Shown piece after piece: positions 24,918-64,000 of a DNA stretch of 64,000 nt (its first letter is position 1; each line of letters opens with the position of its first letter). The notes beneath the pieces were generated by a model, which had not been told where the DNA came from, did not search any database, and worked only from the letters and a program-made list of their open reading frames with translations. The position numbers were made by a program, and so were the translations under genes. The stretch spans positions 135,178 through 199,177 of the forward strand of contig CAOKAC010000004.1 in the NCBI GenBank assembly GCA_948466345.1. Reading direction: 5' to 3'. This DNA comes from an uncultured Clostridia bacterium. Lineage in GTDB: Bacteria; Bacillota; Clostridia; Oscillospirales; CAG-272.

Positions 24918-24975
24918 ATTTTTGTAAGTAAATTGTAATTTTCTTTTGCTAACATGTGATCATGGAGGTGAAAAT

Positions 24976-25659
24976 ATGAAAGTTATCGAGGCAAACCACT
25001 TAAAAAAAGAGTATAGTACCACATGTAATACGGTAAAGGCTTTGGACGATGTTTCCATCACAATTCAAGAAGGAGAATTTGTAGCAATTGTAGGTTCTTC
25101 CGGCAGCGGCAAAACAACGTTATTAAATATATTAGGCGGGTTAGATATACCGACATCGGGAGAAGTACGGGTCAGGGGAAAAGAGATTAATAAAATGAAC
25201 GAAGAGGAACTGACGATATTCCGCAGGAGAAATATTGGATTTGTCTTTCAGAATTACAATTTGGTTCCCATTCTGAATGTTTTAGAAAATGTGGTCTTAC
25301 CCTTAAATTTAGACGGGCGTCCTGTAGATAAAAAATTTATAGATAAAATAATTGAATCTTTGGGTCTGCAGTCTAGGCTGGATCACATGCCTAATATGCT
25401 ATCAGGCGGACAACAGCAGCGGGTTGCCATAGCGCGGGCACTCTCCACTAAGCCGGCAGTTATTTTGGCCGATGAGCCAACAGGAAATTTAGATTCCAAA
25501 ACGGGAATTGAGGTGATTGGTTTATTAAAAGCGAGCGCATCTTTGTTTCATCAAACCATTGTAATTATTACACATAACGAAGAGATTGCCCAAATGGCAG
25601 ATCGAATTATATGTATTGAAGACGGTCGAATCACAGGTGATCAGCATGAAAAACAATAA
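24976..25659 (+). CDS. ABC transporter ATP-binding protein (MacB/FtsE-like subfamily)
   Basis: ATG 24976 has GGAGGTG upstream. Walker A is GSSGSGKTT, the signature is [15 protein letters not shown] and Walker B is [11 protein letters not shown]. Confidence 0.92.
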
Positions 25660-28195: not shown

Positions 28196-28208
28196 AAACC
28201 GGTCCGGG

Positions 28209-28246
28209 AAAAGGGGAATGTCATATAATGACATTCCCCTTTTTCT
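28209..28246. terminator. Bidirectional terminator
   Basis: AAAGGGGAATGTCAT-ata-ATGACATTCCCCTTT followed by TTT. Confidence 0.85.
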
Positions 28247-28348
28247 ATATACAAATAAAAAGCAAATTGCCCACTTCAAATCATCGGGGTATTCAAATTC
28301 CCAAAAGAAATGTTCAGAACGCATACCGTCGTTTCATTTTGTGCTATA

Positions 28349-30142
28349 TTATACTTTGGTGATATTCTTAATAAAATCCTGAAGACGGGCGAGATCAGAG
28401 GGCTTACAACCTGCAAGCCATGAGGCGCTGTACTCGGTAAGCCATGCATCAAAATCCGTCTGAAGCATGTGGCCGTCCAGGAACCTTTCGACTTTGTTGA
28501 CATAAAGATACATTCTGTTCATCAGTGCAACACCTCTTGCTGCCAAAATAAGATCGCTGATTCTTTTATCTGTTGTATCCAACATCCGCATTTCATCTAT
28601 GACCTGTCTGCACAGTTCCAGTCCATTTATGCCCTCCTGCGGATTATAGTCCGCATTGTCATGAGATGGAAGCTTTTCATTCTTTCCCTCCAGTGTATTT
28701 GCGCTGTGCCAGATAATAAAATTGCTCCATGAGCAGGCGGCGGAGGCTTTACTGAGCTTTCGTAACATGTCCGCTATATTATAATCTTTTATATCGTACA
28801 TGAGTAAGGTAGCAGCTTTTTCAAATTCCGTATCCGTTGGGGCATCCGTATTCCAGCTTTTCTGGGCGCCGAAAAGAGCGCCATACAAATTGCAGTTGAA
28901 GGAACAGATATGCCCAAAATCGCCCCAGTTGGTGTTGAGGATACCGAGAGCACCGTATTTTTTTGCATGCGCTGCAAACGCAGAGATATTGCCTGTAGAT
29001 ATGTCGATATCCTCGACAAAGTTATCCCAGCAGGCGGTGCCAGGGCATACAAGTTGTCTAAATCCCAGATCATAGTAAAATTTTGGTATCCATTCGTTGA
29101 CATGTTTGTGATAGCACCAGTTGAGGATAATTGTATCCTTGGGAACACGCTCCTTTGCTGCTTCAGGTCTTGCCATACATTCATCGCCCCATATCATGGG
29201 TGTTTTACCATGGGCTTTTACTATTGTGATCAGCTTGTCAAGGTGATGAAAGTATGCCTCACCCTTATCCTTCCCCTGATTTTTTTCATTGCACAGATCA
29301 ATCGTTTCATCGCAGCAGATATTAACATATTTGGATCGAAACAGTGGCATGTACTGTTCCAGCATACTTCCTATGACTTGTATGGTTTTGGGATTATATA
29401 CGTCCACTGTGTGATGCCATTGTCGCTCAAGCCAGTAGTTTCTTGTCATTTTATGGCGCCCTAATTCGGAAATATCACAGTACCTATCGCTTTGAAGCAG
29501 AGTGAAAAGGTGACCGAAGGTAGCGAGAGAGGGTACAAGATCTATAAATCGATTATAGCAGTATTCATCAAGCTCCAGAATTTCCTCCGGCGTAAGGGCA
29601 TTTTCTTCTGTTGCAATTCCTTCCAGTTCCTTAAAGATAAAGGCATCCTCGACATATAGCTGAAGAGAATTCATTTTGAAGTAGGCGAGCATATCCGCTA
29701 TTTTTTTTAGGGTTTCAAGCCGGCATACTCTGCCTCTGGAAATGTCATGAAAAAAGCCTCTGTAAGGAAAATCCGGAGAATCATTTATTTGGCAGCACGG
29801 AACAGAACAGCCGTGGACTTTTATAAGCTGCCGCAAAGTCTGTATGCCATAAAAGGCGCCGGCAGGTCCTTCTGCCGTAATCTGGATATATCGCTCGTCC
29901 ACACGGAGCATGTAGCCTTCACCGCTGCCGCCATGGGTGATCACTATGCCTCTGTTTTTTTCTTTTGACGAGGTAACAGGAACGTATGATCGGGTGAGCA
30001 CTTCAATTTCTCTGCAAAGGGTTCGGGCAGCAGTTACCACTCTTTTGTCAGTAGCGGAATCTAGATATACCGAAAGCTCCTGGACGAGAAAGCGGCCGCT
30101 GTATTCTTCTATGGTTCTGGGGGATGGAATGAGATGAATCAT
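28349..30142 (-). CDS. Glycoside hydrolase family 20-like (beta-N-acetylhexosaminidase-like), cytoplasmic
   Basis: 597 aa with no signal peptide. INDSPDFPYRGFFHDISRGRV matches the GH20 D.P.F.YRG..LD..R signature at the barrel start. VNICCDE sits at the position of the catalytic H.GGDE. Confidence 0.7.
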   Translation of the reverse strand: MIHLIPSPRTIEEYSGRFLVQELSVYLDSATDKRVVTAARTLCREIEVLTRSYVPVTSSKEKNRGIVITHGGSGEGYMLRVDERYIQITAEGPAGAFYGIQTLRQLIKVHGCSVPCCQINDSPDFPYRGFFHDISRGRVCRLETLKKIADMLAYFKMNSLQLYVEDAFIFKELEGIATEENALTPEEILELDEYCYNRFIDLVPSLATFGHLFTLLQSDRYCDISELGRHKMTRNYWLERQWHHTVDVYNPKTIQVIGSMLEQYMPLFRSKYVNICCDETIDLCNEKNQGKDKGEAYFHHLDKLITIVKAHGKTPMIWGDECMARPEAAKERVPKDTIILNWCYHKHVNEWIPKFYYDLGFRQLVCPGTACWDNFVEDIDISTGNISAFAAHAKKYGALGILNTNWGDFGHICSFNCNLYGALFGAQKSWNTDAPTDTEFEKAATLLMYDIKDYNIADMLRKLSKASAACSWSNFIIWHSANTLEGKNEKLPSHDNADYNPQEGINGLELCRQVIDEMRMLDTTDKRISDLILAARGVALMNRMYLYVNKVERFLDGHMLQTDFDAWLTEYSASWLAGCKPSDLARLQDFIKNITKV

Positions 30143-30308
30143 ACTGAATTATCCTTTGAACAGGTAATTTACTAAATTTTTTCTATCATATCATACCTGA
30201 AAATAGAAATACAAGTATTTAGAAAAATATTTGCAGTAAATTTTATGATGTCTTTCTGCGAAACGCCGGCATTTATAGAATATCTTGTGAATTTGGCATG
30301 TGAAAATA

Positions 30309-30339
30309 CAAAAAAGTCCGATTTTATCGGACTTTTTTG
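30309..30339. terminator. Symmetric hairpin at the edge of the AT-rich islet
   Basis: AAAAA-AGTCCGAT-ttt-ATCGGACT-TTTTT. It could terminate the minus-strand small ORFs. Confidence 0.6.
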
Positions 30340-30506
30340 TTATCCTCATTTTGGTGCCTGTGAAGAAGAAGTCGAATAACTTTTCTTACAAACATTAATA
30401 GGCAGTAATAATTACTAACTAATATAAATATAGCATGATTTTATAATTTTAGGAACAAAAACAGACTAATTTTTATAAATTAATCTGCTCGAAAAATTGT
30501 AATTTG

Positions 30507-30824
30507 TTATTTACTTTTTTTTATATCAATTAATTTGAATATATTTATGAATATTAAAACTAATGATATTATAAATAAAGCAAGTATTATCCAAGGTTCT
30601 ATCCTTTTATCAATAGTAGCAGTTTGTATCATAAATTCCCAATCTGTTCCTCCAAATACGAAATTATCTTTTTTCAAACACCATAATGAAGTTATGATAG
30701 GAACAATAATGGTCAATATCAATTGAATAATTCCTATCTTTTTATTTCCTTTTATAAGAGTAAGAACACCTGATACAAGACCTAGTCCTGTTATAAATCC
30801 AATTACCCAATCCATAATATTCAC
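30507..30824 (-). CDS. Small 3-TM membrane protein, no recognisable family
   Basis: 105 aa with three hydrophobic segments and a KKSK tail. It lies in very AT-rich DNA, so coding status rests on ORF length and TM periodicity only. Confidence 0.5.
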   Translation of the reverse strand: MNIMDWVIGFITGLGLVSGVLTLIKGNKKIGIIQLILTIIVPIITSLWCLKKDNFVFGGTDWEFMIQTATIDKRIEPWIILALFIISLVLIFINIFKLIDIKKSK

Positions 30825-30928
30825 CTCACTTTCAAATTACTATTTATATAATAGTTTTGATAACTTAATTATATCAACTTTTTCCAGTATAATCACCTAG
30901 TCTCTGTGATTATTAAATAATTAAAATT

Positions 30929-31176
30929 AGGATGAAATACTATAGAATTTGATAATATCTAAAAAAGCAGGATAAGAAACTTACACATTAATACTAAGCT
31001 TTTCCTTATTTCATAAGGGTTTAGTATTGTGTAAGACTGATTTTGCACTTGCAAAATTTATCCTACTTTATAGGTTGATATTAAGGATGAATGATTATTT
31101 TTCTCTTATAATTAAAGAGTTCTATATCTTATATTTTCATCCTATTTTGGTATTTTTGATAAATTTAGTAGGATGA
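30929..31176. repeat. Dispersed AGGATGA / AGGATAA motif array in the spacer between the two orphan ORFs
   Basis: AGGATGA runs direct at 30929, 31084 and 31170, and inverted (TCATCCT) at 31137. AGGATAA runs direct at 30969 and inverted at 31059. The 8-bp arms TCATCCTA (31137-31144) and TAGGATGA (31169-31176) form an inverted pair. Confidence 0.6.
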
Positions 31177-31217
31177 TTAGACAAAATCATCTTCCTTATA
31201 AATATTTCTTATTTTTC

Positions 31218-31487
31218 CTAATAATTCTTTAAATATTCTTCTAAATCTCTAAGTTTAATTCTTTTGTTATAACCATTTACAAATATGTCATTACACTCAT
31301 CAAATAGCAAATAGTCATTACCATTAACTTTTAAAATATGTGGTTTTGTATAGGCAATATTAGTAGATTTAATATTGATAATACTTCCATTAATTAGTTC
31401 ATACTTAACACAAGCAAATCTACATACCATATCTACTTTCTTTCTTAATTCCTCACTTATTATAAGTTTTTTAGTTTTTATTGTCAT
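31218..31487 (-). CDS. Hypothetical 89-aa protein, no recognisable family
   Basis: An ORF in AT-rich DNA with a GAGAGTGA RBS-like element upstream. I recognise no motifs. Confidence 0.45.
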   Translation of the reverse strand: MTIKTKKLIISEELRKKVDMVCRFACVKYELINGSIINIKSTNIAYTKPHILKVNGNDYLLFDECNDIFVNGYNKRIKLRDLEEYLKNY

Positions 31488-31516
31488 ATATAATCACTCT
31501 CACTTTCTTTGAAACA

Positions 31517-31542
31517 ATAAAAAACTAACTATCTCTAGTTAG
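31517..31542 (-). terminator. Terminator of tRNA-Leu
   Basis: On the minus strand: CTAACTA-gaga-TAGTTAG followed by TTTTTT. Confidence 0.7.
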
Positions 31543-31584
31543 TAATTTATTACTTACTCGAAAAGTTCGAGTTTCCTATCTATA

Positions 31585-31668
<84 letters not shown>

Positions 31669-31687
31669 ATATAAGCTTTACTATATT

Positions 31688-31716
31688 ATTTTATCATTTT
31701 ATTAGAGAAATGTCAA
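31688..31716 (-). promoter_or_regulatory. Promoter of tRNA-Leu
   Basis: On the minus strand: TTGACA (31716-31711), a 17-nt spacer ending in TGa, then TAAAAT (31693-31688). Confidence 0.6.
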
Positions 31717-31746
31717 GCTCTCATAGTTTTCTTTTTCATTTATAGA

Positions 31747-31775
31747 TTGACAAAAACTGCGGTTCTCGCTATAAT
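31747..31775 (+). promoter_or_regulatory. Consensus sigma-A promoter of the folT-folC operon
   Basis: TTGACA (31747-31752), a 17-nt spacer, then TATAAT (31770-31775). Confidence 0.75.
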
Positions 31776-31815
31776 AAATATGGCCTGTCTAAGAGAGACT
31801 GTAACAATTTCATTT

Positions 31816-31911
31816 GAAGAGTAAGAAACAGCGCGTGAAGTGCCGTGCGTACGGGGAGTTGACACACGGACGAAAAGCTATGCTTGCGGTGGTGTTTCTG
31901 CATCCCGCTTC
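31816..31911 (+). promoter_or_regulatory. THF (tetrahydrofolate) riboswitch
   Basis: GAAGAGUAAGAAACAGCGCGUGAAGUGCCGUGCGUACGGGGAGUUGACACACGGACGAAAAGCUAUGCUUGCGGUGGUGUUUCUGCAUCCCGCUUC. It shares the conserved blocks AGAGUA, GCGUnAAGUG, ACGAA, GCGGUG and UGCAUCC and the P1/P2/P3 pairings with the Eubacterium siraeum THF aptamer as I remember it. It lies upstream of a folate ECF S-component. Confidence 0.88.
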
Positions 31912-31987
31912 AAACGGCTTAGTCAGAATGGGCATATTTGCGCCTTCTTTCCCTGCCGCGTGAACGTCGGGGTAAAGGAGGTTTTTT

Positions 31988-32542
31988 ATGTCTAAAAGTA
32001 AAAGGTCTTTATTTGGTAATATTCGTGTGTTATGTGCTGTTGCATTGTTGACAGCTTGCGCCGCGGTTATTGCCCTCTTTTGCAAATCCTTCACCTTAAC
32101 GCCCTATCTTCGGATTACCTTTGAAAATTTGCCCATTATTCTAACCGGGTATCTTTTCGGGCCATGGGCCGGACTTGCCGCCGGGCTTGCATCGGATATT
32201 TTGAATACACTAGTGACATATGGTCCTGGCCAGTTGAATCCAATTTTAACACTGGGCGCCGGAATTGTCGGCTTTTCTGCTGGTGCGGTTGGCCGGTGGA
32301 TTTTTCCGAAAAGGGGAGTGCTGCAGCTATCGCTCAGCGTAGCGGCGGCGCATATAGCGGGGAATATGATTGTAAAGTCCGTCGGGTTAATGATTTATTT
32401 TGGCTATTCACTTCCATTGGTTTTACCTCGCGTTCCCTTATATATCTGTATTGGAATAATTGAATTCATCTTCCTATACTTACTGCTGTGCAGCAAAGGA
32501 ATCAATAAAATAGTTGGAGCGATTTGTGATCATGACGTATAA
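31988..32542 (+). CDS. folT: Folate-family ECF transporter S component
   Basis: 184 aa with about 6 TM segments and the motif ITFENLPIILTGYLFGPWAGL. It follows a THF riboswitch and precedes folC. Confidence 0.8.
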   Translation: MSKSKRSLFGNIRVLCAVALLTACAAVIALFCKSFTLTPYLRITFENLPIILTGYLFGPWAGLAAGLASDILNTLVTYGPGQLNPILTLGAGIVGFSAGAVGRWIFPKRGVLQLSLSVAAAHIAGNMIVKSVGLMIYFGYSLPLVLPRVPLYICIGIIEFIFLYLLLCSKGINKIVGAICDHDV

Positions 32543-55667: not shown

Positions 55668-56912
55668 ATGGAAAACAAAAACATGACAAAAGAGCAAAAA
55701 CGGCAGGAAAGCGTTTCGATCGCTTTCCTGCCGAAACCTAAGAAACAGTTGTCGGAAAAGGACAAACAGCTGAATCTGACAGGTATGCACAAAAAGAGAG
55801 ACGCTGTGTCGGACCGCAAAAAGCGCAGGCGCTTTTACATTGGCATCGGTATTCCTGTGGGGCTGATTCTGCTTCTTACTGTATGCTATGTGATATTTGT
55901 TTACTCATCCAATCCTTTTATTGCTCATTGGAGAGGGATCTGGATTGAAACAGCGATGACCACCGGCCGACATCACTGGCTGGCAGAAAGCTTTTTTCCC
56001 CAAGATATCATAGATGAGGTTATGTCAAATTTGGCCACGGACGAGGATGTTCTTGGCGGGGGAGACGGCTTATCTACAGGAGATCCAGTGCAGACGGATG
56101 AGCCGGAAGATGAGCCGCCGGTGCAGGCTGATATATTGGGTCAGAAAAACCTGACGGTAGGCGGCAAGGATTATGCCGGGAATACGGTGCTCATTAATGA
56201 CATTGAACAGGGACTGGTGGTTTCTGAAATCATAGGCTCCGGATTTAAAGGGAAAATTATGCTGGTAGACGATCCTTCCAGAGTGTATTTAGGGTCTACG
56301 GCATATAAAAATCAAACAGGCATGCGTATCCTGGATATGATGGAGCAATACGGCGCTATTGCCGGAATTAACGCAAGCGGCTTTCGGGATCCAGGCGGTG
56401 AAGGAAACGGTGGAGTTGTTGTAGGTATTAGCTGTTCAAGGGGTCAATACTGGGGCGAATTTGTAAATTACTATGGCAGTATTGTTTTGACTACGGACAA
56501 TAAGCTGGTTGTTGGCAATATCTCTCTTTGGAGTACATATACAAATATACGAGATGGAATCCAATTCAGCCCGGTGCTGATCGCAGATGGCGTCAAACAG
56601 GTATCCGGCTCTGCGGGATACGGACTGCAGCCCCGGACCGCAATCGGACAGCGCGAAGACGGTGTGATTGTCATGCTGATCATTGATGGGCGTGATGTTT
56701 CCCATTCAATTGGATGTACGGTTGGAGATATGGCGGACATTCTCATGTCCTATAATGTGATTAATGCATCCAGCTGTGATGGCGGCGCTTCCAGTGTACT
56801 TGCCTATAAGGGAGAAGTGATTACAAAAAATTGTTCGGCAAATCCTTCTCTGGGGCGCATTTTGCCAAATGCGTTTTTGGTAGCACCTAAAGAAAATATA
56901 AGCGCAGAATGA
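55668..56912 (+). CDS. Phosphodiester glycosidase (DUF2233/NAGPA) family protein, membrane-anchored
   Basis: 414 aa with an N-terminal TM (FYIGIGIPVGLILLLTVCYVIFVY). The motifs PRTAIGQREDGVIVMLIIDGR and SCDGGASS are typical of this family. Confidence 0.75.
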   Translation: MENKNMTKEQKRQESVSIAFLPKPKKQLSEKDKQLNLTGMHKKRDAVSDRKKRRRFYIGIGIPVGLILLLTVCYVIFVYSSNPFIAHWRGIWIETAMTTGRHHWLAESFFPQDIIDEVMSNLATDEDVLGGGDGLSTGDPVQTDEPEDEPPVQADILGQKNLTVGGKDYAGNTVLINDIEQGLVVSEIIGSGFKGKIMLVDDPSRVYLGSTAYKNQTGMRILDMMEQYGAIAGINASGFRDPGGEGNGGVVVGISCSRGQYWGEFVNYYGSIVLTTDNKLVVGNISLWSTYTNIRDGIQFSPVLIADGVKQVSGSAGYGLQPRTAIGQREDGVIVMLIIDGRDVSHSIGCTVGDMADILMSYNVINASSCDGGASSVLAYKGEVITKNCSANPSLGRILPNAFLVAPKENISAE

Positions 56913-56940
56913 GGGACGTATACGTCTCTCATTTTATTTT
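56909..56940 (+). terminator. Terminator before the hydrogenase operon
   Basis: ATGAGGGACGT-ata-ACGTCTCTCAT (one G-T pair) followed by TTTTATTTT. Confidence 0.7.
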
Positions 56941-57097
56941 TATAGAATATTTTTTTACTGTATTAATATAATGAGGATAAAATGAGAGATAATAGCACGA
57001 AAAAAATCTATAAAATTGCTATAAACTATGGAAATCGATAATATTTTATTGTATAATACTATAGATAACATACTTGTTCAGGAGGACAGGAAAATAT

Positions 57098-57595
57098 ATG
57101 AAAAAGAAACTGACGTCAGTAGAATTTACTGACAATCCCCAACTGCATGCTCGCCTTGATGAAATTATTGAGCAGCATAAGGATGAAGATGGCGCTCTGA
57201 TGCCTATTATGCAAAAGGCGCAGGAGATTTACGGCTATCTCCCGCCGGAGGTACAAAAGCATATTGCAGTAAAAATGGGAATCCCTGTTTCTGAGGTGTA
57301 CGGTGTTGCTACATTTTATTCCCAGTTCTTACTCAATCCCAAGGGACAGTATCCTGTGAGTGTTTGCCTGGGAACTGCTTGCTATGTAAAGGGTAGCGGT
57401 CTTCTGATGGAAAAACTGGAATCTGAGCTTGGAATCAGCAACGGCGGCGTGACAGACGATGGGAAATTCAGCTTAGAGGCTACCCGTTGCATCGGTGCGT
57501 GCGGATTGGCGCCTGTACTTACGGTAGGAGAGGACGTTTACGGAAGACTTGTACCGGACGATATTACAGGAATTATTGCAAAATATCAGGGTTAA
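57098..57595 (+). CDS. hydC: NuoE-like [2Fe-2S] subunit of a bifurcating-type [FeFe] hydrogenase
   Basis: ATG 57098 has AGGAGGA upstream. The CLGTAC...CIGACGLAP thioredoxin-like 2Fe-2S motif is present. Confidence 0.88.
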   Translation: MKKKLTSVEFTDNPQLHARLDEIIEQHKDEDGALMPIMQKAQEIYGYLPPEVQKHIAVKMGIPVSEVYGVATFYSQFLLNPKGQYPVSVCLGTACYVKGSGLLMEKLESELGISNGGVTDDGKFSLEATRCIGACGLAPVLTVGEDVYGRLVPDDITGIIAKYQG

Positions 57596-57647: not shown

Positions 57648-58016
57648 ATGGACAGAAATTTGAAAATTAGAAAAATCAGAGAACTTCTGGACGCTGAACT
57701 TCTGTGTGGAGAAGACCAATTGGACAGAGAAGTATACTCTGCTTGCAGCAGCGACATGATGAGCGATGTGCTTGCTTTTGTAAAGGATCAGGCCGTGCTG
57801 CTTACAGGACTGGTCAATCCACAAGTAATGCGTACTGCGGAAATGATGGATATGCACTGCGTTGTTTTTGTGCGTGGAAAGAATCCTACACCGGAAATGG
57901 TGGAACTGGCCCAAAGCAGTGGAATCGTTGTGATGCATTCTGCGCTGCGAATGTATGAAGCATGCGGCACACTTTACAGCGCCGGCTTGAATGGAACGAA
58001 AGTGGCGGCAGAATGA
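57648..58016 (+). CDS. DRTGG-domain protein (1)
   Basis: 122 aa. SDMMSDVLAFVKDQAVLLTGLVNPQVMRTAEMMDMHCVVFVRGK fits the DRTGG-domain pattern as I recall it. Its stop overlaps the next start (ATGA). Confidence 0.65.
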   Translation: MDRNLKIRKIRELLDAELLCGEDQLDREVYSACSSDMMSDVLAFVKDQAVLLTGLVNPQVMRTAEMMDMHCVVFVRGKNPTPEMVELAQSSGIVVMHSALRMYEACGTLYSAGLNGTKVAAE

Positions 58017-58438
58017 CAGACGCAGGAATTAATTTTCATTTTGATGTAGATGGGGAAGATTTTTCTTCTGCCGGCGCTGCGTCGGTAGAGGTCAAAAAGA
58101 ATCTTCGTCAGCTTGGATTCCCGCCGGATGTAATTCGCAAGGTGGCTATTGCCATGTATGAGGGAGAGATCAATATGGTGATCCATGCAAATGGCGGCAC
58201 TGCAGATGTATTTGTGCTTCCCGATGAAATTACCATGGTACTGCGGGATCAGGGACCGGGCATTGCAGATGTTTCGCTTGCAATGCAGGAGGGCTTTTCA
58301 ACAGCTAGGGATAATATTCGTTCCCTTGGGTTTGGAGCCGGTATGGGTCTGCCAAATATGAAGAAATATACAGACGCCATGGAGATTGAGACCGAACTTG
58401 GCAAGGGCACAAAAATTGTGATGCGGGTAAAGGTGTAG
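58013..58438 (+). CDS. GHKL (HATPase_c) ATP-binding protein, RsbW/SpoIIAB-like, no DHp domain (1)
   Basis: I prefer ATG 58013 (MTDAGINFHF). The N-box-like motif is YEGEINMVIHA, G1 is RDQGPGI and G2 is GFGAGMGLPN. Confidence 0.75.
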   Translation: MTDAGINFHFDVDGEDFSSAGAASVEVKKNLRQLGFPPDVIRKVAIAMYEGEINMVIHANGGTADVFVLPDEITMVLRDQGPGIADVSLAMQEGFSTARDNIRSLGFGAGMGLPNMKKYTDAMEIETELGKGTKIVMRVKV

Positions 58439-58512: not shown

Positions 58513-59856
58513 ATGATGGAATATAAGCATTCAGTGTCCCTTGATGTGGATAAATGCAAGGGATGTACACACTGCTTGAAGCGCTGTCCAACGGAGGCGA
58601 TCCGCATCCGAGAAGGCAAAGCAAGGATTCATTCCCAGCGGTGTATTGACTGTGGCGAGTGCATTCGTGTTTGTCCGTATAAGGCAAAGAAAGCGACCCA
58701 TGATTCCTTAGAGGCGATGGAGCAGTTTCGGTATAAGGTTGCACTTCCCGCTCCTTCCTTATATGGACAGTTTGATCATCTTTCTGATATAGACTTTGTA
58801 CTGCAGGGCCTTCTGGATATGGGCTTTGACGAAGTATATGAGGTCTCTAAGGCGGCGGAATTGGTTTCTGGTTATACCAGACAGTATTTGCGTAGAGAGG
58901 GGCTGAAAAAGCCTGTCATCAGTTCAGCCTGCCCGGTAATTGTTCGGCTAATCAGTATGCGGTTCCCATATTTATGTGAGAATGTGCTTCCGATTCTGCC
59001 ACCCATTGAAATTGCCGGCAAGCTGGCAAAAGAAAAAGCATTATCGGAGCATCCCGAGCTTGCAGCGGAGGAAATTGGTATTTGCTTTATTTCTCCTTGC
59101 CCGGCAAAAGTCAGTTATGTGAAAAATTCCTTTGCAGGGCAAAAAAGCAACATAGATTTGGTGCTTTCTATATCCGACGTATACTTTCCCCTGGTTTCTC
59201 ATATGAACAAAATCATTGTTCCAGAAGTTTCTACAGATTCCGGAATGGTGGGTGTCAGCTGGGCAGTAGCCGGCGGAGAGTCTACCGCAGTATTTAACGA
59301 CCGATATCTAGCGGCGGATGGAATAGAAAACGTCATTCGTGTGCTGGACCAAATAGAAAACGCCGATTTTCCGGAATTGGAGTTTGTGGAACTCAATGCT
59401 TGTGATGGCGGCTGCGTCGGCGGAGTAATGACTGTAGCAAACCCGTACATAGCAAAGGCGCGCATTCAATCTTTGAAGCGATATTTGCCCGTATCTCCCA
59501 ATCTGCATCCTGGAGATGGGGATATACCAGGCGAGGCAGCTATGCCGCCTGTAGAATATGCGCCGGCATCTCCTCTATCCAAAGACAGAAAAGAAGCCAT
59601 GCGCATGATGGCAGACATACAGGATATTCGAAAGGAGCTTCCCGATTTAGACTGTGGATCCTGCGGGGCCCCTACTTGTGCGGCTTTTGCTGAGGATATC
59701 GTTCGAGGAGAGGCATGTGCAGACGAGTGTGTTGTATTTATGCGGATGATTTTTCACGATTATATCGAGAAGAGAAAGGACGCCGCACAGGTTAAGGAAG
59801 CACTGCGTACACAGCCTCACAGCAAGGATATACGGCCGAAATGTGAGGATGGATAA
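58513..59856 (+). CDS. [FeFe]-hydrogenase-like Fe-S protein (H-domain homologue with variant H-cluster motifs; putative sensor)
   Basis: 447 aa. Two CxxCxxCxxxCP ferredoxin motifs are present. The H-domain motifs are SSAC140P (versus TSCCP), SPC196PAK (versus MPCxxK) and ELNAC297DGGC301VGG (versus ExMxCxxGCxxGG). The extra C-terminal Cys cluster reads CGSCGAPTC...CADEC. Confidence 0.8.
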   Translation: MMEYKHSVSLDVDKCKGCTHCLKRCPTEAIRIREGKARIHSQRCIDCGECIRVCPYKAKKATHDSLEAMEQFRYKVALPAPSLYGQFDHLSDIDFVLQGLLDMGFDEVYEVSKAAELVSGYTRQYLRREGLKKPVISSACPVIVRLISMRFPYLCENVLPILPPIEIAGKLAKEKALSEHPELAAEEIGICFISPCPAKVSYVKNSFAGQKSNIDLVLSISDVYFPLVSHMNKIIVPEVSTDSGMVGVSWAVAGGESTAVFNDRYLAADGIENVIRVLDQIENADFPELEFVELNACDGGCVGGVMTVANPYIAKARIQSLKRYLPVSPNLHPGDGDIPGEAAMPPVEYAPASPLSKDRKEAMRMMADIQDIRKELPDLDCGSCGAPTCAAFAEDIVRGEACADECVVFMRMIFHDYIEKRKDAAQVKEALRTQPHSKDIRPKCEDG

Positions 59857-60197
59857 TGATGCCTATGAAACTGAATGTATTGGCGGACAGACTTGCCCTG
59901 ACACATATTTGCGGCGAACTGGATAAGGAAGCGTCCGGCGTTTATACAGGGGATTTGCTCAGCTGGGTCATGAGCCATGTAGAGGCGGGCGATGTTTGGA
60001 TAACAATTATGTCCAATGTAAATGTGGCGGCAGTTGCCAGCCTCACGGAGGCGGCATGCGTGATTCTGGCTGAAAGTGTGCAGCCTGACGAGGAGACGAT
60101 GCAGGCGGCAAAGGAAAAGAATGTAACGATTTTTTCCGATTCCCGGTCCGCATATCAATTGTGCTGCTGCCTTGGAGCTATTTTATCTGATGGGTAA
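59856..60197 (+). CDS. DRTGG-domain protein (2)
   Basis: 113 aa, paralogous in pattern to 57648-58016 (GDLLSWVMSHVEAGDVWITIMSNVNVAAVASLTEAACVILAE). Its start overlaps the upstream stop (TAATG). Confidence 0.6.
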   Translation: MMPMKLNVLADRLALTHICGELDKEASGVYTGDLLSWVMSHVEAGDVWITIMSNVNVAAVASLTEAACVILAESVQPDEETMQAAKEKNVTIFSDSRSAYQLCCCLGAILSDG

Positions 60198-60924
60198 ATA
60201 TTATTATGACCTGCATATCCACTCCTGCCTGTCTCCATGCGGGGATACGGATATGACGCCTGCAAACATTGCTGGTATGGCGGCGGTGGCCGGACTGCAG
60301 ATTGCAGCACTCACCGATCACAATACAACAGACAATTGTCCTGCTTTTTGGCAGGCGTGTAAGGCGCAGGGGATCATTCCCGTACCTGGTGTGGAGCTGA
60401 CTACAGCAGAAGAGATTCATCTACTATGCCTATTTCGGGAGCTAGATGGAGCAATGGCTTTTGGAGAACGTATCGCAGCAGCAAGGCTTCCTGTGAAGAA
60501 TCGACCTGATATTTTTGGGCACCAGCTTGTAATGGACTGCACAGACCAGGTGCTGCGAGAGGAAGAAACGTTGCTGCTTAGCGCTACATCGCTTACTTTA
60601 GAAGAAGGAACGCGGATGTGTCGAACGCTTGGGGGGGTGTGCATGCCTGCCCACATTGATCGCGAGTCCAATGGTATAATTTCCGTGCTTGGTACTTTCC
60701 CGGCGGAGCCTGGGTATACCAGCTTTGAACTGAGCCCGACAGGGGAACGACGGGAATTGGAGACTGCGTATCCAATTCTGCAGGGTATGGGCTGTGTCAC
60801 CAGTTCGGATGCGCATTATTTGTGGGACATATCCGGAGCGGAACACAGCATGGAAATCCAGGATGAGCCGTACAGCAGTGCTTTGGTGCGGGAAAACCTT
60901 CTGGCGATTTTGGAGAATAAATAA
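60190..60924 (+). CDS. PHP-domain phosphoesterase
   Basis: I prefer ATG 60190 (MGKYYYDLHIHSCLSPCGD). DLHIHS and ALTDHN are PHP metal-binding motifs, with PAHIDR and SSDAH further on. Confidence 0.8.
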   Translation: MGKYYYDLHIHSCLSPCGDTDMTPANIAGMAAVAGLQIAALTDHNTTDNCPAFWQACKAQGIIPVPGVELTTAEEIHLLCLFRELDGAMAFGERIAAARLPVKNRPDIFGHQLVMDCTDQVLREEETLLLSATSLTLEEGTRMCRTLGGVCMPAHIDRESNGIISVLGTFPAEPGYTSFELSPTGERRELETAYPILQGMGCVTSSDAHYLWDISGAEHSMEIQDEPYSSALVRENLLAILENK

Positions 60925-60926
60925 AA

Positions 60927-61475
60927 ATGAAGGATTTATCTCTCTACATATTGGATATTGCTATGAATTCTGTCCGGGCTGGTGCAAAGCATATTGCAAT
61001 TCGGCTGGAGGAACAGAACGCTGTATTGACCCTAACCATTCAGGATGACGGGTGCGGTATGACGCCGGAGCAGGTGAAGCGCTTGTTTGACCCTTTTTAT
61101 ACTACTAGAAAGACCCGAAGCGTTGGATTGGGCGTTCCTTTTTTGCGAATGCTGGCACAGCAGACTGGAGGCGGCGTTTCCATTTCTTCCAAAAGCGAGA
61201 CGGAATACGCAGATCATGGCACATTGGTAACGGCTGTATTTCACACGGACCATATAGATTTTATCCCTTTGGGGAATCTTACAGAAACGATTGTAACTTT
61301 GATTCAGGGAAGTCCAAATGTGGATTTTATTTACTGCCACAGTATGTCATGCGGCAGTGTTGCAATGGATACAGCCCAGATGCGCAGCATACTGGGGGAG
61401 GGCATTCCTTTGGACAATTATGAAGTGCTGAGCTTCATAAAATCGTATTTACAAGAACAGTATCAACAATTATAA
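60927..61475 (+). CDS. GHKL (HATPase_c) ATP-binding protein without DHp domain (2)
   Basis: 182 aa. The N-box-like motif is LDIAMNSVRAG, G1 is DDGCGM and G2-like is GLGVPF. Confidence 0.75.
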   Translation: MKDLSLYILDIAMNSVRAGAKHIAIRLEEQNAVLTLTIQDDGCGMTPEQVKRLFDPFYTTRKTRSVGLGVPFLRMLAQQTGGGVSISSKSETEYADHGTLVTAVFHTDHIDFIPLGNLTETIVTLIQGSPNVDFIYCHSMSCGSVAMDTAQMRSILGEGIPLDNYEVLSFIKSYLQEQYQQL

Positions 61476-61509: not shown

Positions 61510-61881
61510 ATGAAATCGTTATCAGAACTTGCAGCGATCAGAGAGCAAATGAAGGACAAGGTCGCTATTCGGACAGGATCCGGAGACATTCGTGTCGTAG
61601 TAGGCATGGCAACCTGCGGGATATCGGCAGGCGCCAGACCTGTGCTCAATACCTTTGTTGAGGAAGTAGCTGCGGCAAATCTCACTGAAAAGGTGATGGT
61701 AACCCAGACGGGGTGTATTGGCATTTGCCAGTATGAACCTGTAGTTGAAATTTTTGAGGATGGAAAAGAAAAGACTACATATGTTAAAATGACACCTGAG
61801 AAAGTCAAACGGGTTGTTGAAGAGCATCTGAAGGGCGGGAAGCCCGTTTCAGAATATTTAATTGGCAATACAAAGCTTTAA
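61510..61881 (+). CDS. Thioredoxin-like [2Fe-2S] ferredoxin-domain protein
   Basis: 123 aa with the GMATCGISAGA...TGCIGICQYEP Cys pattern. It sits immediately upstream of the NuoF-like gene, as in other hyd operons. Confidence 0.8.
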   Translation: MKSLSELAAIREQMKDKVAIRTGSGDIRVVVGMATCGISAGARPVLNTFVEEVAAANLTEKVMVTQTGCIGICQYEPVVEIFEDGKEKTTYVKMTPEKVKRVVEEHLKGGKPVSEYLIGNTKL

Positions 61882-61900
61882 TCTGGAGGGACAAAAAAGA

Positions 61901-63700
61901 ATGGTACGTTCACATGTTTTAATTTGCGGAGGCACAGGCTGTACATCCTCCGGCAGTACTGCGTTAAGGGAGGCACTTGCAAAGGAACTGGAAGCCAATA
62001 ACCTTAGCGAGGAAATAAAAATCGTCCAGACCGGATGCTTTGGTTTATGCGCGCTAGGACCGATTATGATTGTATATCCGGAGGGAACATTTTACTCCAG
62101 AGTTGCGACAGACGACATTCCGGAAATCGTGTCTGAGCATCTGCTCAAAGGGCGTATCGTAGATCGCCTGGTTTACAATAAAACCGCTGATGTAGAAGCA
62201 GATTCTCACGAATTGCATGCTTCTTTGTCCGATACAGATTTCTATAAAAAACAGAAGCGGGTTGCGCTGCGTAACTGTGGTGTAATCAACCCAGAAAAAA
62301 TTGATGAATACATAGCAATGGACGGCTATTTTGCCCTTGCAAAAGTCCTTACGGAAATGAGTAGGGAAGATGTTGTGCAAACACTGCTGGATTCCGGCCT
62401 GCGCGGCCGTGGCGGCGCAGGATTTCCTACCGGCTTGAAATGGAAGTTTGCGATGGGCAGCGAGGGTAAGAAGTATGTTTGCTGTAACGCAGACGAAGGC
62501 GACCCGGGCGCATTTATGGACCGTTCTGTTTTGGAAGGCGACCCGCATGCCGTACTGGAGGCTATGGCTATTGCAGGCTATGCTATCGGTGCAGATCAGG
62601 GATATATTTATGTGCGTGCAGAGTATCCTATTGCTGTAAATCGCTTGGAAATCGCTCTGCAGCAGGCAAGAGAATACGGTCTGCTGGGAGAAAATATTCT
62701 GGACACCGGATTCAATTTTGATATTCAGCTTCGTCTTGGCGCAGGCGCTTTTGTGTGCGGAGAAGAGACAGCGCTGATGACCTCTATAGAAGGCAAGCGG
62801 GGTGAACCTCGTCCGCGTCCTCCGTTCCCGGCTGTGAAGGGCCTTTTTGAGCGTCCCACAATTTTGAACAACGTAGAGACTTATGCGAACATTCCCCAAA
62901 TTATTTTGAATGGTCCTGCATGGTTTGCCTCTATGGGTACAGAAAAGTCTAAAGGCACAAAAGTATTTGCTCTAGGCGGAAAAATCACCAATACGGGTCT
63001 TGTTGAAGTACCTATGGGCACAACGCTGCGGGAAATCGTAGAAGAAATCGGTGGCGGCATCCCTAACGGCAAAAAGTTCAAAGCAGCGCAGACGGGAGGT
63101 CCATCCGGTGGATGTATTCCCGCATCTCTTATTGATACGCCTATCGATTATGACAACCTGCTGGAAATCGGATCAATGATGGGATCCGGCGGTCTCATTG
63201 TTATGGATGAAGACACCTGTATGGTAGACCTTGCTAAATTCTTCCTGGAGTTTACGGTAGACGAGTCTTGTGGTAAATGTGCTCCCTGCCGAATCGGCAC
63301 TGTTCGTATGTTGGAAATTCTAAACAGAATTTCTGAGGGAAATGGTGAGATGGAAGATTTGGATAAGCTGGAGGAACTGGCAAATTATATCAAGTCTGCC
63401 TCCCTTTGCGGTTTGGGACAGACGGCGCCTAATCCAGTGCTGTCTACGCTCCGGTATTTCCGGGATGAATATGAAGCCCATATTAAAGAAAAAAGATGTC
63501 CTGCCGGCGTGTGCAAAAAACTTCTTTCTTACAACATCGATTCTGACAAGTGTAAAGGCTGTACGCTTTGCGCCCGGGTATGTCCTGCAAATGCAATTTC
63601 CGGTACAGTCAAGAATCCGCATGTCATCGATCCGGAAAAATGTCTGAAGTGCGGCGCTTGCATTGAAAAATGTAAATTTGGCGCAATTTACAAGAAGTAA
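61901..63700 (+). CDS. hydB: NuoF-like FMN/NAD(H)-binding subunit of [FeFe] hydrogenase
   Basis: I prefer ATG 61901, with GGAGGG upstream. It has an N-terminal 2Fe-2S domain (CGGTGC...GCFGLC). GLRGRGGAGFPTGLKW is the FMN site, ESCGKCAPCR is the N3-type cluster, and two CxxCxxCxxxCP motifs lie at the C-terminus. Confidence 0.93.
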   Translation: MVRSHVLICGGTGCTSSGSTALREALAKELEANNLSEEIKIVQTGCFGLCALGPIMIVYPEGTFYSRVATDDIPEIVSEHLLKGRIVDRLVYNKTADVEADSHELHASLSDTDFYKKQKRVALRNCGVINPEKIDEYIAMDGYFALAKVLTEMSREDVVQTLLDSGLRGRGGAGFPTGLKWKFAMGSEGKKYVCCNADEGDPGAFMDRSVLEGDPHAVLEAMAIAGYAIGADQGYIYVRAEYPIAVNRLEIALQQAREYGLLGENILDTGFNFDIQLRLGAGAFVCGEETALMTSIEGKRGEPRPRPPFPAVKGLFERPTILNNVETYANIPQIILNGPAWFASMGTEKSKGTKVFALGGKITNTGLVEVPMGTTLREIVEEIGGGIPNGKKFKAAQTGGPSGGCIPASLIDTPIDYDNLLEIGSMMGSGGLIVMDEDTCMVDLAKFFLEFTVDESCGKCAPCRIGTVRMLEILNRISEGNGEMEDLDKLEELANYIKSASLCGLGQTAPNPVLSTLRYFRDEYEAHIKEKRCPAGVCKKLLSYNIDSDKCKGCTLCARVCPANAISGTVKNPHVIDPEKCLKCGACIEKCKFGAIYKK

Positions 63701-63720: not shown

Positions 63721-64000
63721 ATGGAAACCAAAATGGTCAATATAAAAATCAATGGCGCAGAGTATTCTGTGCCCTACGGAACAACAGTTCTGGAGGCGTG
63801 CAGACAAGCTGGTATCGACATCCCCACACTATGCTATTTAAAGGATGTCAACGAAATCGGCGCTTGTCGTCTGTGCTTAGTAGAGGTAGTGGGCGCAAGA
63901 GGACTGGTGACTTCCTGTGTATATCCCATTGAGCGAGACGGCACAGAAATTCTTACAAATACAGCTAAGGTACAGGCTGCGCGGAAAATGAACATTCAGC
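63721..64000 (+). CDS. hydA: [FeFe] hydrogenase catalytic subunit, N-terminal 2Fe-2S domain only; continues beyond the window end
   Basis: Absent from the ORF track because there is no stop in the window. My translation reads METKMVNIKINGAEYSVPYGTTVLEACRQAGIDIPTLCYLKDVNEIGACRLCLVEVVGARGLVTSC, a plant-type/NuoG-like 2Fe-2S pattern. AAGGAAGGAG lies upstream. Confidence 0.85.
   Translation, partial: METKMVNIKINGAEYSVPYGTTVLEACRQAGIDIPTLCYLKDVNEIGACRLCLVEVVGARGLVTSCVYPIERDGTEILTNTAKVQAARKMNIQ

Follow-up and report, generated by a model that had tools for sequence, protein, structure and literature searches.

A Group D (M2e) [FeFe] hydrogenase, HydS, in a conserved gene cassette of an uncultured gut Clostridia lineage, with a putative role as H2-reporting regulator

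Results

Assignment of HydS to Group D

The gene hydS (58513..59856, forward strand; an open reading frame of 447 amino acids), located in a 64,000-nucleotide stretch of DNA (the window) from an uncultured Clostridia bacterium, almost certainly encodes a [FeFe] hydrogenase of Group D (M2e subclass), and the best overall explanation of the gene and its surroundings is that HydS is probably an H2-reporting regulator of the bifurcating hydrogenase HydABC, working within a conserved cassette. Its motif pattern is already known as the defining signature of the Group D (M2e) putative sensory [FeFe] hydrogenases, for which we used the definition given by Land 2020 (PMC8163306) and Carere 2012. The model enzyme of this group is TamHydS from Thermoanaerobacter mathranii (Land 2020 PMC8163306; Cabotaje 2023 PMC10407848; Schumann 2026 PMC13104023), whose sequence we rebuilt from the supplementary information of PMC13104023, with the published residue numbers matching at 19 of 19 positions. 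HydS aligns to TamHydS over its full length with 49% identity over 426 residues (E = 3e-142), compared with about 20% identity to Group A enzymes. A residue map between the two proteins located in HydS the equivalents of TamHydS A137, S191, E252, D265, E289 and C379/382/387/404, as well as those of R30, R32, K35, K58, E392 and D393.

The family is large and sparsely annotated. At E ≤ 1e-30, 431 clusters at 50% identity match the HydS query; the M2e architecture is common to the 150 cluster representatives closest to HydS, and those of them longer than 500 residues showed no PAS domain. No NCBIfam model captures HydS. Among the models for Groups A and B (TIGR02512, TIGR04105, NF040762/3), the best match was the monomeric B1 model, which at 126 bits is far below its cut-off of 450 bits, and the group A score was 86 bits against a cut-off of 406 bits. 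The exact sequence of HydS is already in public databases, and the records of its cluster are named '4Fe-4S dicluster domain-containing protein', '4Fe-4S binding protein' or 'RnfB'.

Domain layout and iron-sulfur cluster motifs

Pfam assigned to the hydS product two Fer4 domains, Fe_hyd_lg_C (residues 76-304, E = 1.7e-26) and PF04060 'FeS' (residues 376-407); in agreement with the first-pass annotation, which had seen no PAS domain, none was detected at E ≤ 0.01. The N-terminal F-domain contains two ferredoxin-type [4Fe-4S] motifs (58555..58674, forward strand), as had also been proposed, each of the form CxxCxxCxxxCP and together matching Fer4 twice. Their eight cysteines (15/18/21/25 and 44/47/50/54) are invariant among 144 relatives drawn from three clades, the sample on which all conservation counts for HydS positions are based. 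The remaining cysteines are residues 140, 196, 297 and 301 and a C-terminal set, 381/384/389/402/406.

The C-terminal cysteine block had been described as CGSCGAPTC-x13-CADEC. The block is present, but 12 residues rather than 13 separate C389 from C402, and C402 is a cysteine in only 12 of the 144 relatives; because it is not conserved, we consider it incidental and rejected it as a cluster ligand. C381, C384 and C389 are invariant and C406 is a cysteine in all but one of the relatives (143/144). The predicted fourth ligand is C406, giving a canonical Cx2Cx4Cx16C [4Fe-4S] motif (59653..59730, forward strand; identified by regular expression and PF04060), after which 41 residues precede the stop at 447 amino acids, a length typical of TamHydS-type proteins. 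RnfB and the large subunit of CFeSP (AcsC; PDB 4djd_C/2h9a_A) carry the same PF04060 [4Fe-4S] domain at their N-termini, and the HydS block LPDLDCGSCGAPTCAAFAEDIVRGEACADEC pairs residue for residue with LPKKNCGECGTPTCLAFAMNLASGKASLDSC, all four cysteines included. In CFeSP and RnfB, however, this N-terminal domain supplies a corrinoid or the Rnf complex with electrons, whereas in HydS it follows the H-domain.

An AF2 model of HydS built from the alignment of 144 sequences from the three clades reached a pLDDT of 92.9; a shallow alignment of 26 sequences had given a pLDDT of 65 and was discarded in its favor. The top PDB fold matches of the model are all [FeFe] hydrogenases (Foldseek E about 1e-17 to 1e-20 and TM 0.58-0.64 for the H-domain fold shared with Group A). 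From its sequence, HydS is predicted to bind an H-cluster together with [4Fe-4S] clusters, two of them N-terminal and one C-terminal.

H-cluster motifs and proton path

The registers of the H-cluster motifs were set by HMMER alignments to the solved hydrogenase of D. desulfuricans (DdH). In L1 (SSAC140P; 58921..58935, forward strand; TamHydS A137/C138), the segment PVISSAC140P pairs with PQFTSCCP of DdH, which places A139 on the relay cysteine (DdH C178, CpI C299) and C140 on the [4Fe-4S]H ligand. The proposal that alanine replaces the proton-relay cysteine is thereby borne out, and none of the 144 relatives has a cysteine at this position (A81/F56/S4/Y2/T1). In L2 (S194-P-C196-P-A-K199; 59092..59109, forward strand), ISPC196PAK pairs with IMPCIAK of DdH, and the CpI matches stop at HydS residue 199, equivalent to CpI 358, i.e. 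Lys358. The Cys355 and Lys358 equivalents are retained and serine occupies the Met353 position, also as proposed; position 194 is always serine or threonine (T85/S59), and K199 is present in 144 of 144 relatives. In L3 (E293-L-N295-A-C297-DGG-C301; 59389..59415, forward strand), FVELNAC297DGGC301VGG pairs with FIEYMACPGGCVCGG of DdH, retaining the Cys499 and Cys503 equivalents. Asparagine stands at the Met497 position and no GGGQ follows the motif, both in line with the first-pass annotation; position 295 is variable (R56/L54/N25), and E293, C297 and C301 occur in every relative (144/144).

All four H-cluster cysteines, C140/C196/C297/C301 (CpI C300/C355/C499/C503), align with their counterparts in DdH, CpI and TamHydS and are invariant in the 144 relatives, so the claim that they are retained stands. 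By the DdH and CpI alignments, the residue numbers and registers given originally were right, with no mis-registration against solved hydrogenases. The motifs typical of Groups A and B (TSCCP, MPCxxK and ExMxCxxGCxxGGGQ) are all altered in HydS.

The alterations extend to the proton-transfer residues. CpI C299/E279/S319/E282 correspond to A139/Y121/L159/Q124 in HydS, and only the R286 position is still an arginine (R128). Judged by sequence, HydS is missing the Group A proton-transfer chain as well as both methionines framing the diiron site, and carries a predicted Glu/Asp path specific to Group D, E256-E293-D269. Two residues of this path, E256 and D269 (59278..59319, forward strand), were assigned by the residue map as equivalents of TamHydS E252 and D265, and are present in 144/144 and 140/144 relatives, respectively. 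A role in proton transfer was assigned to TamHydS E252 and E289 (PMC10407848), where E252, E289 and D265 are described as highly conserved in the Group D path and S249 as moderately so; E252 and D265 are not conserved in Groups A, B and C (PMC10407848, PMC8163306). The equivalent of S249 in HydS is A253, a minority state found in 16 of the 144 relatives.

The hydS operon

The window and contigs identical to it have the gene order hydC-DRTGG-HATPase_c_2-hydS-DRTGG-PHP-HATPase_c-fdx-hydB-hydA, all on the forward strand. The operon boundary is suggested, from a consensus scan only, by a putative terminator of the upstream gene with a 13-bp stem (56906-56935) and two promoter-like sites (56954-56983 and 57029-57057). 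No support for control by Rex was found: with up to three mismatches, the Rex operator TTGTTAANNNNTTAACAA had three matches in the window, fewer than expected by chance and none near the operon.

The first gene, hydC (57098..57595; PF01257, E = 1e-50; gene call in identical contigs), encodes a NuoE-like [2Fe-2S] subunit of the bifurcating hydrogenase. It is followed by a gene for a DRTGG-domain protein of 122 residues (57648..58016; PF07085), a conserved upstream partner in 79 loci, four of them distant, whose stop is overlapped by 4 nt by the start of a gene for a SpoIIAB/RsbW-like GHKL Ser-kinase-type ATPase (HATPase_c_2, 141 residues; 58013..58438; PF13581 and gene call). The best named match of this kinase-like protein is TIGR01925, anti-sigma F factor, at 53 bits against a cut-off of 135, and its N, G1 and G2 boxes do not vary among cassette relatives. 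Downstream, overlapping the hydS stop by 1 nt, lies the gene for a second DRTGG-domain protein (113 residues; 59856..60197; PF07085), conserved in 81 loci. Next come genes for a PHP-family phosphoesterase of 244 residues (60190..60924; PF02811 and gene call), with conserved HxH and further metal-ligand motifs, and for an ATPase of 182 residues consisting of an orphan histidine-kinase catalytic (CA) domain (60927..61475; PF02518, E = 4e-17), which has conserved N, G1 and G2 boxes and no DHp/His domain.

The remaining genes are those of a bifurcating hydrogenase. They encode a small thioredoxin-like [2Fe-2S] ferredoxin of the HydD type (61510..61881; PF01257, NF041612); HydB, a NuoF-like FMN/NADH subunit (61862..63700, with the start at 61901 in the gene call of identical contigs; Complex1_51K, NADH_4Fe-4S and Fer4; TIGR01959, 505 bits); and HydA, a group-A trimeric-type catalytic [FeFe] hydrogenase whose gene is cut by the window end after its 5' portion (63721..64000). 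The full HydA has 582 residues (locus L001) and scores 688 bits to HydA1 of a solved HydABC complex. It retains the relay cysteine and EIMACPGGCVNGGGQP, and has isoleucine at the Met353 position. For the motif 'TSCSP' of PDB 7q4v/7q4w, a full-text literature search returned no hydrogenase paper.

Conservation of the cassette

Around hydS, the genes for DRTGG, SpoIIAB-like kinase, HydS, DRTGG, PHP phosphoesterase and orphan GHKL ATPase form a six-gene cassette, and the whole gene order from hydC to hydA recurs in essentially all of 80 species-level Oscillospirales genomes; in one of them (L076), HydS stands without the downstream cassette or hydBA. The cassette also occurs in Thermoanaerobacter, in C. 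bescii (Caldicellulosiruptor), in the Cthe_0335 region of Acetivibrio thermocellus, in one Bacteroidales MAG and in one Acidobacteriota MAG, so that in Bacillota, Bacteroidota and Acidobacteriota alike it accompanies the genes of a bifurcating hydrogenase. The arrangement in the window is that of C. bescii Athe_1292 and Thermoanaerobacter, and the union of hydS, bifurcating hydrogenase genes (hydC, hydB, hydA) and kinase-like genes in one operon is as described for Group D, whose members are encoded upstream of a trimeric bifurcating Group A hydrogenase. Across phyla, the ATP-binding and metal-binding motifs of the cassette partners are kept. Natural fusions among HydS relatives take the forms HydS-DRTGG, DRTGG-HydS and HATPase_c_2-HydS, with DRTGG fused in several, although some of these may have arisen only from the way overlapping genes were called. 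Full-text literature searches for DRTGG with hydrogenase gave only unrelated papers, and a search for a PHP domain with bifurcating hydrogenase and kinase gave only an unrelated table entry.

Discussion

Comparison with known systems

HydS and TamHydS share two N-terminal [4Fe-4S] motifs, an H-domain, the Cx2Cx4Cx16C motif and the lack of PAS; alanine at the Cys299 position, serine at the Met353 position and the E252/E289/D265 path; the interdomain residues R30/R32/K35/K58 and E392/D393, with D378 beside the first C-terminal cysteine; and the same operon cassette with the same downstream bifurcating hydrogenase. The differences are few. HydS has asparagine for leucine at the Met497 position, which is a known variable site, alanine for S249, arginine for K126, glutamine for E122 and glutamate for the aspartate before the last cysteine, and it has the additional, non-conserved Cys402. 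In the window hydC heads the operon, whereas in the TamHydS locus it follows the PHP gene, and the host here belongs to a mesophilic gut Clostridia MAG lineage.

TmHydS of Thermotoga maritima (Group C/M2f) resembles HydS in its N-terminal clusters, the replacement of the relay cysteine by alanine and its C-terminal four-cysteine motif, and it too has low activity and adjoins a bifurcating hydrogenase (PMC10407848, PMC8163306, PMC3561251). Unlike HydS, it has a C-terminal PAS domain, glycine at the Met353 position and serine at the Met497 position, and it is without the Group D Glu/Asp proton path. The Group A enzymes (CpI, DdHydAB and the HydA of the same operon) have in common with HydS, besides the fold, the four H-cluster cysteines and the Lys358 equivalent; in contrast to them, HydS is without the relay cysteine, Met353, Met497, the GGGQ after L3 and an Fe_hyd_SSU domain, and carries the extra C-terminal cluster motif.

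A putative role in H2 sensing

TamHydS is slow, has a high affinity for H2 and tolerates CO, and a sensory role was proposed for it (Land 2020, PMC8163306). That role is still termed putative even for TamHydS (PMC8924675) and is hypothetical in vivo for Group D as a whole. The enzyme spontaneously takes up [2Fe]adt and turns over H2, and it catalyzes H+/H2 interconversion reversibly and close to the thermodynamic potential (PMC8163306), with a specific activity of about 0.1 umol H2 mg-1 min-1 as against Group A turnover of 10^4-10^5 s-1 (PMC10407848). By analogy, we infer that HydS binds [2Fe]H, and it would turn over H2 slowly with high affinity and stabilize reduced H-cluster states. The earlier reading of HydS as an H2- or redox-sensing protein rather than a turnover enzyme matches the literature view of Group D/M2e in its first part; its second part is true only in a relative sense, not an absolute one, because TamHydS does catalyze the reversible reaction.

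That HydS acts as a sensor or regulator is, on balance, likely. The gene context suggests that it may report either the partial pressure of H2 or a combination of H2 and redox state, and that its signal would control the co-transcribed electron-bifurcating HydABC. With no PAS domain, the signal would most likely pass through the five small flanking proteins co-conserved with HydS, namely the two DRTGG-domain proteins, the SpoIIAB-like GHKL Ser kinase, the PHP phosphoesterase and the orphan histidine-kinase ATPase domain, all of which are concrete candidates for signal-transduction partners. A redox relay to the HydS C-terminus is undermined by the finding that in TamHydS H2 does not reduce the C-terminal cluster, though stronger reductants do, and that its disruption barely alters activity (PMC13104023). 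A histidine phospho-acceptor in the C-terminal helix was also considered, and was dropped because TamHydS has no histidine there.

The cassette could function as a partner-switching-like module of phosphorylation and dephosphorylation. As in SpoIIAB/SpoIIAA and RsbW/RsbV, the gene for a small GHKL Ser-kinase-type ATPase lies beside those for single-domain partners and a phosphoesterase; unlike those modules, the cassette has no STAS-domain antagonist, sigma factor or PP2C phosphatase, and its partners are DRTGG proteins and a PHP enzyme. A specific phospho-relay through the cassette proteins is only a tentative proposal. Equally speculative is the fuller picture of a fixed cassette of six proteins with HydS as its H2-sensing core, in which the phospho-switch, with an invariant threonine of the DRTGG proteins, within LLTGL in the first and WITIM in the second, as candidate acceptor (our own suggestion) and the PHP enzyme as eraser, would tune HydABC in response to H2, possibly post-translationally. 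Group D HydS would then perhaps not be a stand-alone sensor addressing a transcription factor. In function, the regulatory [NiFe] hydrogenase HoxBC-HoxJ offers a parallel, a slow hydrogenase governing a productive one (analogy in PMC8163306).

Alternative explanations

Two alternatives concern what HydS is. It might be a Group C (M2f) protein with its PAS domain lost or truncated, or a monomeric, ferredoxin-dependent Group A/B hydrogenase with drifted motifs; Groups C and D do indeed have in common their N-terminal clusters, a missing Cys299 and the Cx2Cx4Cx16C motif (PMC8163306), and the monomeric B1 model is the best NCBIfam match. We nevertheless consider this very unlikely, given that the protein stops at the TamHydS-type length with a DRTGG rather than a PAS gene next, that serine at the Met353 position (glycine in Group C) and E256/D269 are Group D traits, that the >500-residue members among the nearest 150 representatives have no PAS, and that the B1 and A scores are so low. 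Just as improbable is a degenerate paralogue, an iron-sulfur protein with a relic hydrogenase fold that does not bind the diiron subcluster, as might be read from the replacement of Cys299, Met353 and Met497 and from public names such as '4Fe-4S binding protein' or 'RnfB'. TamHydS has the same replacements yet binds [2Fe]adt and turns over H2 (PMC8163306), and the invariance of the four cysteines, K199, E256 and E293 across three clades points to purifying selection on the H-cluster site.

Two further alternatives accept a Group D protein and question what it does, and we regard each as unlikely. HydS could be a slow but working module, an auxiliary catalytic or electron-entry subunit of HydABC that serves, for example, as a safety valve or in low-H2 uptake. 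Reversible catalysis by TamHydS near the thermodynamic potential (PMC8163306), the two N-terminal clusters as a normal electron-transfer relay, and the translational coupling of hydS inside a structural operon would all suit such a subunit; the very low TamHydS rate (PMC10407848) would not. Moreover, the matched solved HydABC complexes list hydrogenase subunits only, with no HydS-like chain among the PDB sequence and fold matches, the obligatory neighbors (kinase, phosphoesterase, ATPase) are not redox proteins, and the partners fused to HydS are DRTGG and kinase domains rather than HydA, HydB or HydC. The other possibility is that HydS senses the cellular redox state (the ferredoxin/NADH pool) through its FeS clusters, not H2, with the H-cluster merely setting a reference potential. 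The PF04060 domain, found in RnfB and CFeSP, which use low-potential ferredoxin, agrees with this, as does the reduction of the TamHydS C-terminal cluster by reductants stronger than H2 (PMC13104023), and with no Rex operator preceding the operon, another redox input would be useful. Irrelevance of H2 chemistry is, however, hard to square with the strict conservation of the H-cluster site, the Lys358 equivalent and the dedicated proton path, and in TamHydS it is H2 that reduces the H-cluster and shifts secondary structure (PMC13104023).

Implications

By itself, this HydS matters very little, being typical of the Group D [FeFe] hydrogenases and coming from an uncultured gut Clostridia lineage, and both its class and the sensing hypothesis are already in the literature; what the analysis adds is the naming of the cassette neighbors as candidate partners. 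The family, with its hundreds of clusters at 50% identity, goes unrecognized because record names are generic and no NCBIfam model reaches its cut-off, an annotation gap that touches metagenomes of the gut and rumen, in which the partial pressure of H2 governs the fermentation balance. The cross-phylum cassette and the HydS fusions name specific, testable candidate partners for signaling by PAS-less Group D enzymes.

Assignment of HydS to Group D of the [FeFe] hydrogenases

The ORF at 58513-59856 (+) encodes a 447-residue protein, HydS, that contains two CxxCxxCxxxCP ferredoxin motifs (Cys 15/18/21/25 and 44/47/50/54), cysteines at 140, 196, 297, and 301, a C-terminal block (Cys 381/384/389/402/406), and three scattered cysteines. 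Pfam assigned 4Fe-4S dicluster families to residues 8-58, in agreement with the two N-terminal ferredoxin motifs of the first-pass annotation, Fe_hyd_lg_C to residues 76-304 (E=1.7e-26), and PF04060 ("putative Fe-S cluster") to residues 376-407; the scan found no PAS domain in HydS, as had been stated. HMMER alignments to solved chains of the Desulfovibrio desulfuricans hydrogenase (DdH) placed PVISSACP of HydS on PQFTSCCP, ISPCPAK on IMPCIAK, and FVELNACDGGCVGG on FIEYMACPGGCVCGG, with the Ala of a deposited DdH C178A mutant in the same column as A139. These alignments and those to CpI, which stop at HydS residue 199 (CpI 358), agree with the registers originally proposed for the H-cluster motifs L1, L2, and L3, and bear out each substitution read from them: A139 occupies the proton-relay position (CpI C299), C140, C196, C297, and C301 occupy the four H-cluster ligand positions, S194 and N295 replace Met353 and Met497, and K199 corresponds to Lys358. 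The Group A proton-path positions of CpI, E279/E282/R286/S319, are Y121/Q124/R128/L159 in HydS. The C-terminal Cys block is also present, although the C389-C402 spacer is 12 rather than the reported 13 residues and C402 is not conserved; the real motif thus runs C381-x2-C384-x4-C389-x16-C406. This block, including all four cysteines, matches residue for residue the [4Fe-4S] domain found at the N terminus of RnfB and of the large subunit (4djd_C, 2h9a_A) of the corrinoid/FeS protein. An AlphaFold2 model built from a deep alignment had a pLDDT of 92.9, and its top PDB matches by Foldseek were all [FeFe] hydrogenases at ~20% identity (DdH, CbA5H, HydA of HydABC complexes, and CpI), with no Group C or D enzyme among them.

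Judged by sequence, these features together match how the M2e subclass, or Group D, is defined in the literature: its members have two [4Fe-4S] motifs at the N terminus and Cx2Cx4Cx16C at the C terminus, lack C299 along with the entire proton pathway of Group A, carry Ser or Thr for Met353 as a well-conserved exchange, are poorly conserved at the Met497 position, and have no PAS domain (Land et al. 2020, PMC8163306). Several "D M2e" genes had already been catalogued (Athe_1292, TTE0887, Cthe_0335, Teth39_1463, and Cphy_3798; Carere et al. 2012, PMC3561251). For direct comparison, the 435-residue protein of the Thermoanaerobacter mathranii member, TamHydS, was reconstructed from a coding sequence, damaged by OCR, that PMC13104023 gives in its SI; all 19 of 19 residue numbers quoted in papers fell on the correct amino acid, and one database protein is 99% identical to the reconstruction. 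HydS shares 49% identity with it over 426 residues (E=3e-142), with TamHydS A137, S191, E252, D265, E289, and L291 corresponding to A139, S194, E256, D269, E293, and N295, C379/C382/C387/C404 to C381/C384/C389/C406, R30/R32/K35/K58 to R31/R33/K36/K59, and E392/D393 to E394/D395. The sole Group D marker unmatched in HydS is the moderately conserved TamHydS S249, which is A253. HydS is therefore a new, unremarkable example of an already defined class, for which the H2- or redox-sensing role put forward in the first-pass annotation is the standing hypothesis.

Conservation and annotation of the family

In 144 relatives that share 29-79% identity with HydS and come from clades of the Oscillospirales, Thermoanaerobacter/Caldicellulosiruptor, and Bacteroidales, no substitution occurs at the four H-cluster cysteines, K199, E256, E293, C381, C384, or C389; 143 keep C406 and 140 keep D269. 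Position 139 is Ala in 81, Phe in 56, and otherwise Ser, Tyr, or Thr, never Cys; position 194 is Thr in 85 and Ser in 59, and Arg, Leu, or Asn occupies position 295. A second alignment of 127 full-length representatives gave the same picture. A search of 1.84 billion cluster representatives returned 431 clusters matching HydS at E<=1e-30. Public records name its exact 90% cluster "4Fe-4S dicluster domain-containing protein", "4Fe-4S binding protein", or "RnfB", and no NCBIfam model reaches its cut-off for HydS (126 vs 450 bits for B1, 86 vs 406 bits for group A), which together amount to an annotation gap for the entire Group D family.

A conserved cassette surrounds hydS

A terminator with a 13-bp stem (56906-56935) closes the upstream gene and is followed by promoter-like sites, after which ten genes run in one direction past the window end, with overlapping start and stop codons at several junctions. 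hydC, for a NuoE-like subunit (57098-57595), precedes a DRTGG protein (57648-58016), a SpoIIAB-like HATPase_c_2 protein (58013-58438), and hydS; downstream lie a second DRTGG protein (59856-60197), a PHP phosphoesterase (60190-60924), a HATPase_c domain protein that lacks a DHp/His domain (60927-61475), a small [2Fe-2S] ferredoxin (61510-61881), hydB for a NuoF-like subunit (ending at 63700), and hydA for the catalytic subunit (from 63721, interrupted by the window end). On contigs with an identical HydS, the full HydA has 582 residues and is the last gene of the operon (L001:15209-16957). In contrast to HydS, this HydA keeps the relay Cys and a canonical L3, EIMACPGGCVNGGGQP.

The L1 motif of HydA reads TSCSP rather than TSCCP, which in a straight alignment puts Ser at the [4Fe-4S]H ligand Cys300 and keeps the relay Cys299; in its L2, Ile replaces Met353. 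Of 51 HydA genes linked to a Group D HydS, 50 encode TSCSP, which is also present in the solved HydABC chain 7q4v_A; a full-text search found no paper on this motif in the hydrogenase literature. No Rex box was found ahead of the operon. The weak Rex-like matches of the window fall only within a G+C dip at 24001-32000 (0.30-0.37 vs about 0.45-0.50 elsewhere; minimum 0.302 at 30001-32000), which may be a foreign or AT-rich island.

Sampling one genome per species gave 80 loci, all in Oscillospirales-type MAGs, with HydS at 56-77% identity, the closest (77%) from Candidatus Avispirillum. A phmmer survey of their ORFs showed that essentially all complete loci keep this ten-gene order; hydC is relocated behind the PHP gene in four, and the downstream genes are missing from one (L076). 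There, HydS (L076:57-1382; 59% identity) is followed by an unassigned 133-residue ORF and unrelated opposite-strand genes (DUF4867, fumarase), with no PHP, HATPase, or hydBA genes downstream, and the contig ends on the upstream side. A second hydC-hydB-hydA set, in divergent orientation, lies directly upstream of the HydS operon in L050, and L035 has an extra HydS-like ORF upstream of hydC. A six-gene core (DRTGG, HATPase_c_2, HydS, DRTGG, PHP, HATPase_c), with NuoF-like and HydA-like genes next in line, also occurs in four distant lineages: on a contig from Thermoanaerobacter that encodes a HydS 96% identical to TamHydS, in the Athe_1292 region of C. bescii (CP001393), and in one Bacteroidales and one Acidobacteriota MAG. 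In the last, the NuoF-like gene is fused to a Pyr_redox_2/Fer4_20 (GltD-like) module (L088:11814-14897; 1027 aa), which suggests another nucleotide partner for that hydrogenase.

Apparent fusions of HydS to cassette domains in relatives

Nine of the 150 nearest cluster representatives exceed 500 residues, and eight of these are natural fusions of HydS (P0139, P0142, P0239, P0245, P0265, P0164, P0198, and P0162); none of the nine has a PAS domain. DRTGG is C-terminal in five and N-terminal in two, and HATPase_c_2 is N-terminal in one. Gene-calling artefacts may be among them; taken at face value, the fusions are Rosetta-stone evidence that the DRTGG and HATPase_c_2 neighbors work with HydS. In alignments of the partners across phyla, the N, G1, and G2 ATP-binding boxes are invariant in both GHKL proteins, HxH and further metal-ligand motifs are conserved in the PHP protein, and the DRTGG-motif position of both DRTGG proteins is always Thr ("LLTGL", "WITIM"); this Thr, speculatively, could be a phospho-acceptor. 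A conserved (S/G)D(M/L)(M/L)S stretch is likewise common to the two DRTGG proteins.

Discussion

In sequence, HydS has every feature required for binding an H-cluster plus three accessory clusters; the fast Group A proton path is missing, and the Glu/Asp path of Group D is present. The Ser194, E256, and D269 markers, like the family cut-offs, contradict a reading of HydS as a Group C enzyme without PAS or as a Group A/B enzyme that has drifted; the strict conservation and the biochemistry of TamHydS contradict a relic FeS protein. A slow auxiliary catalytic subunit is disfavored, as rates would be very low, the neighbors are a kinase and a phosphatase, and no HydS-like chain appeared among the PDB sequence or fold matches. 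HydS might sense the redox state of ferredoxin or NADH, possibly alongside H2.

By analogy to TamHydS, HydS would interconvert H2 and H+ slowly and with high affinity and stabilize reduced states. Synteny and the fusions suggest that it forms a complex with the SpoIIAB-like kinase and both DRTGG proteins and that, jointly with the orphan ATPase and the PHP phosphoesterase, it would tune the bifurcating hydrogenase according to H2 or redox conditions; a phospho-switch resembling partner switching is a speculative candidate. Since the C-terminal cluster of TamHydS did not respond to H2 (PMC13104023), coupling more likely proceeds through conformation than by relaying electrons to that cluster. 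The searchable open-access literature, which does not extend to the original M2e paper, mentions only kinase-like genes among the flanking genes. The wide distribution and rigid make-up of the six-gene cassette, together with the fusions, may be new, and they name candidate partners for the signal-transduction step of HydS.
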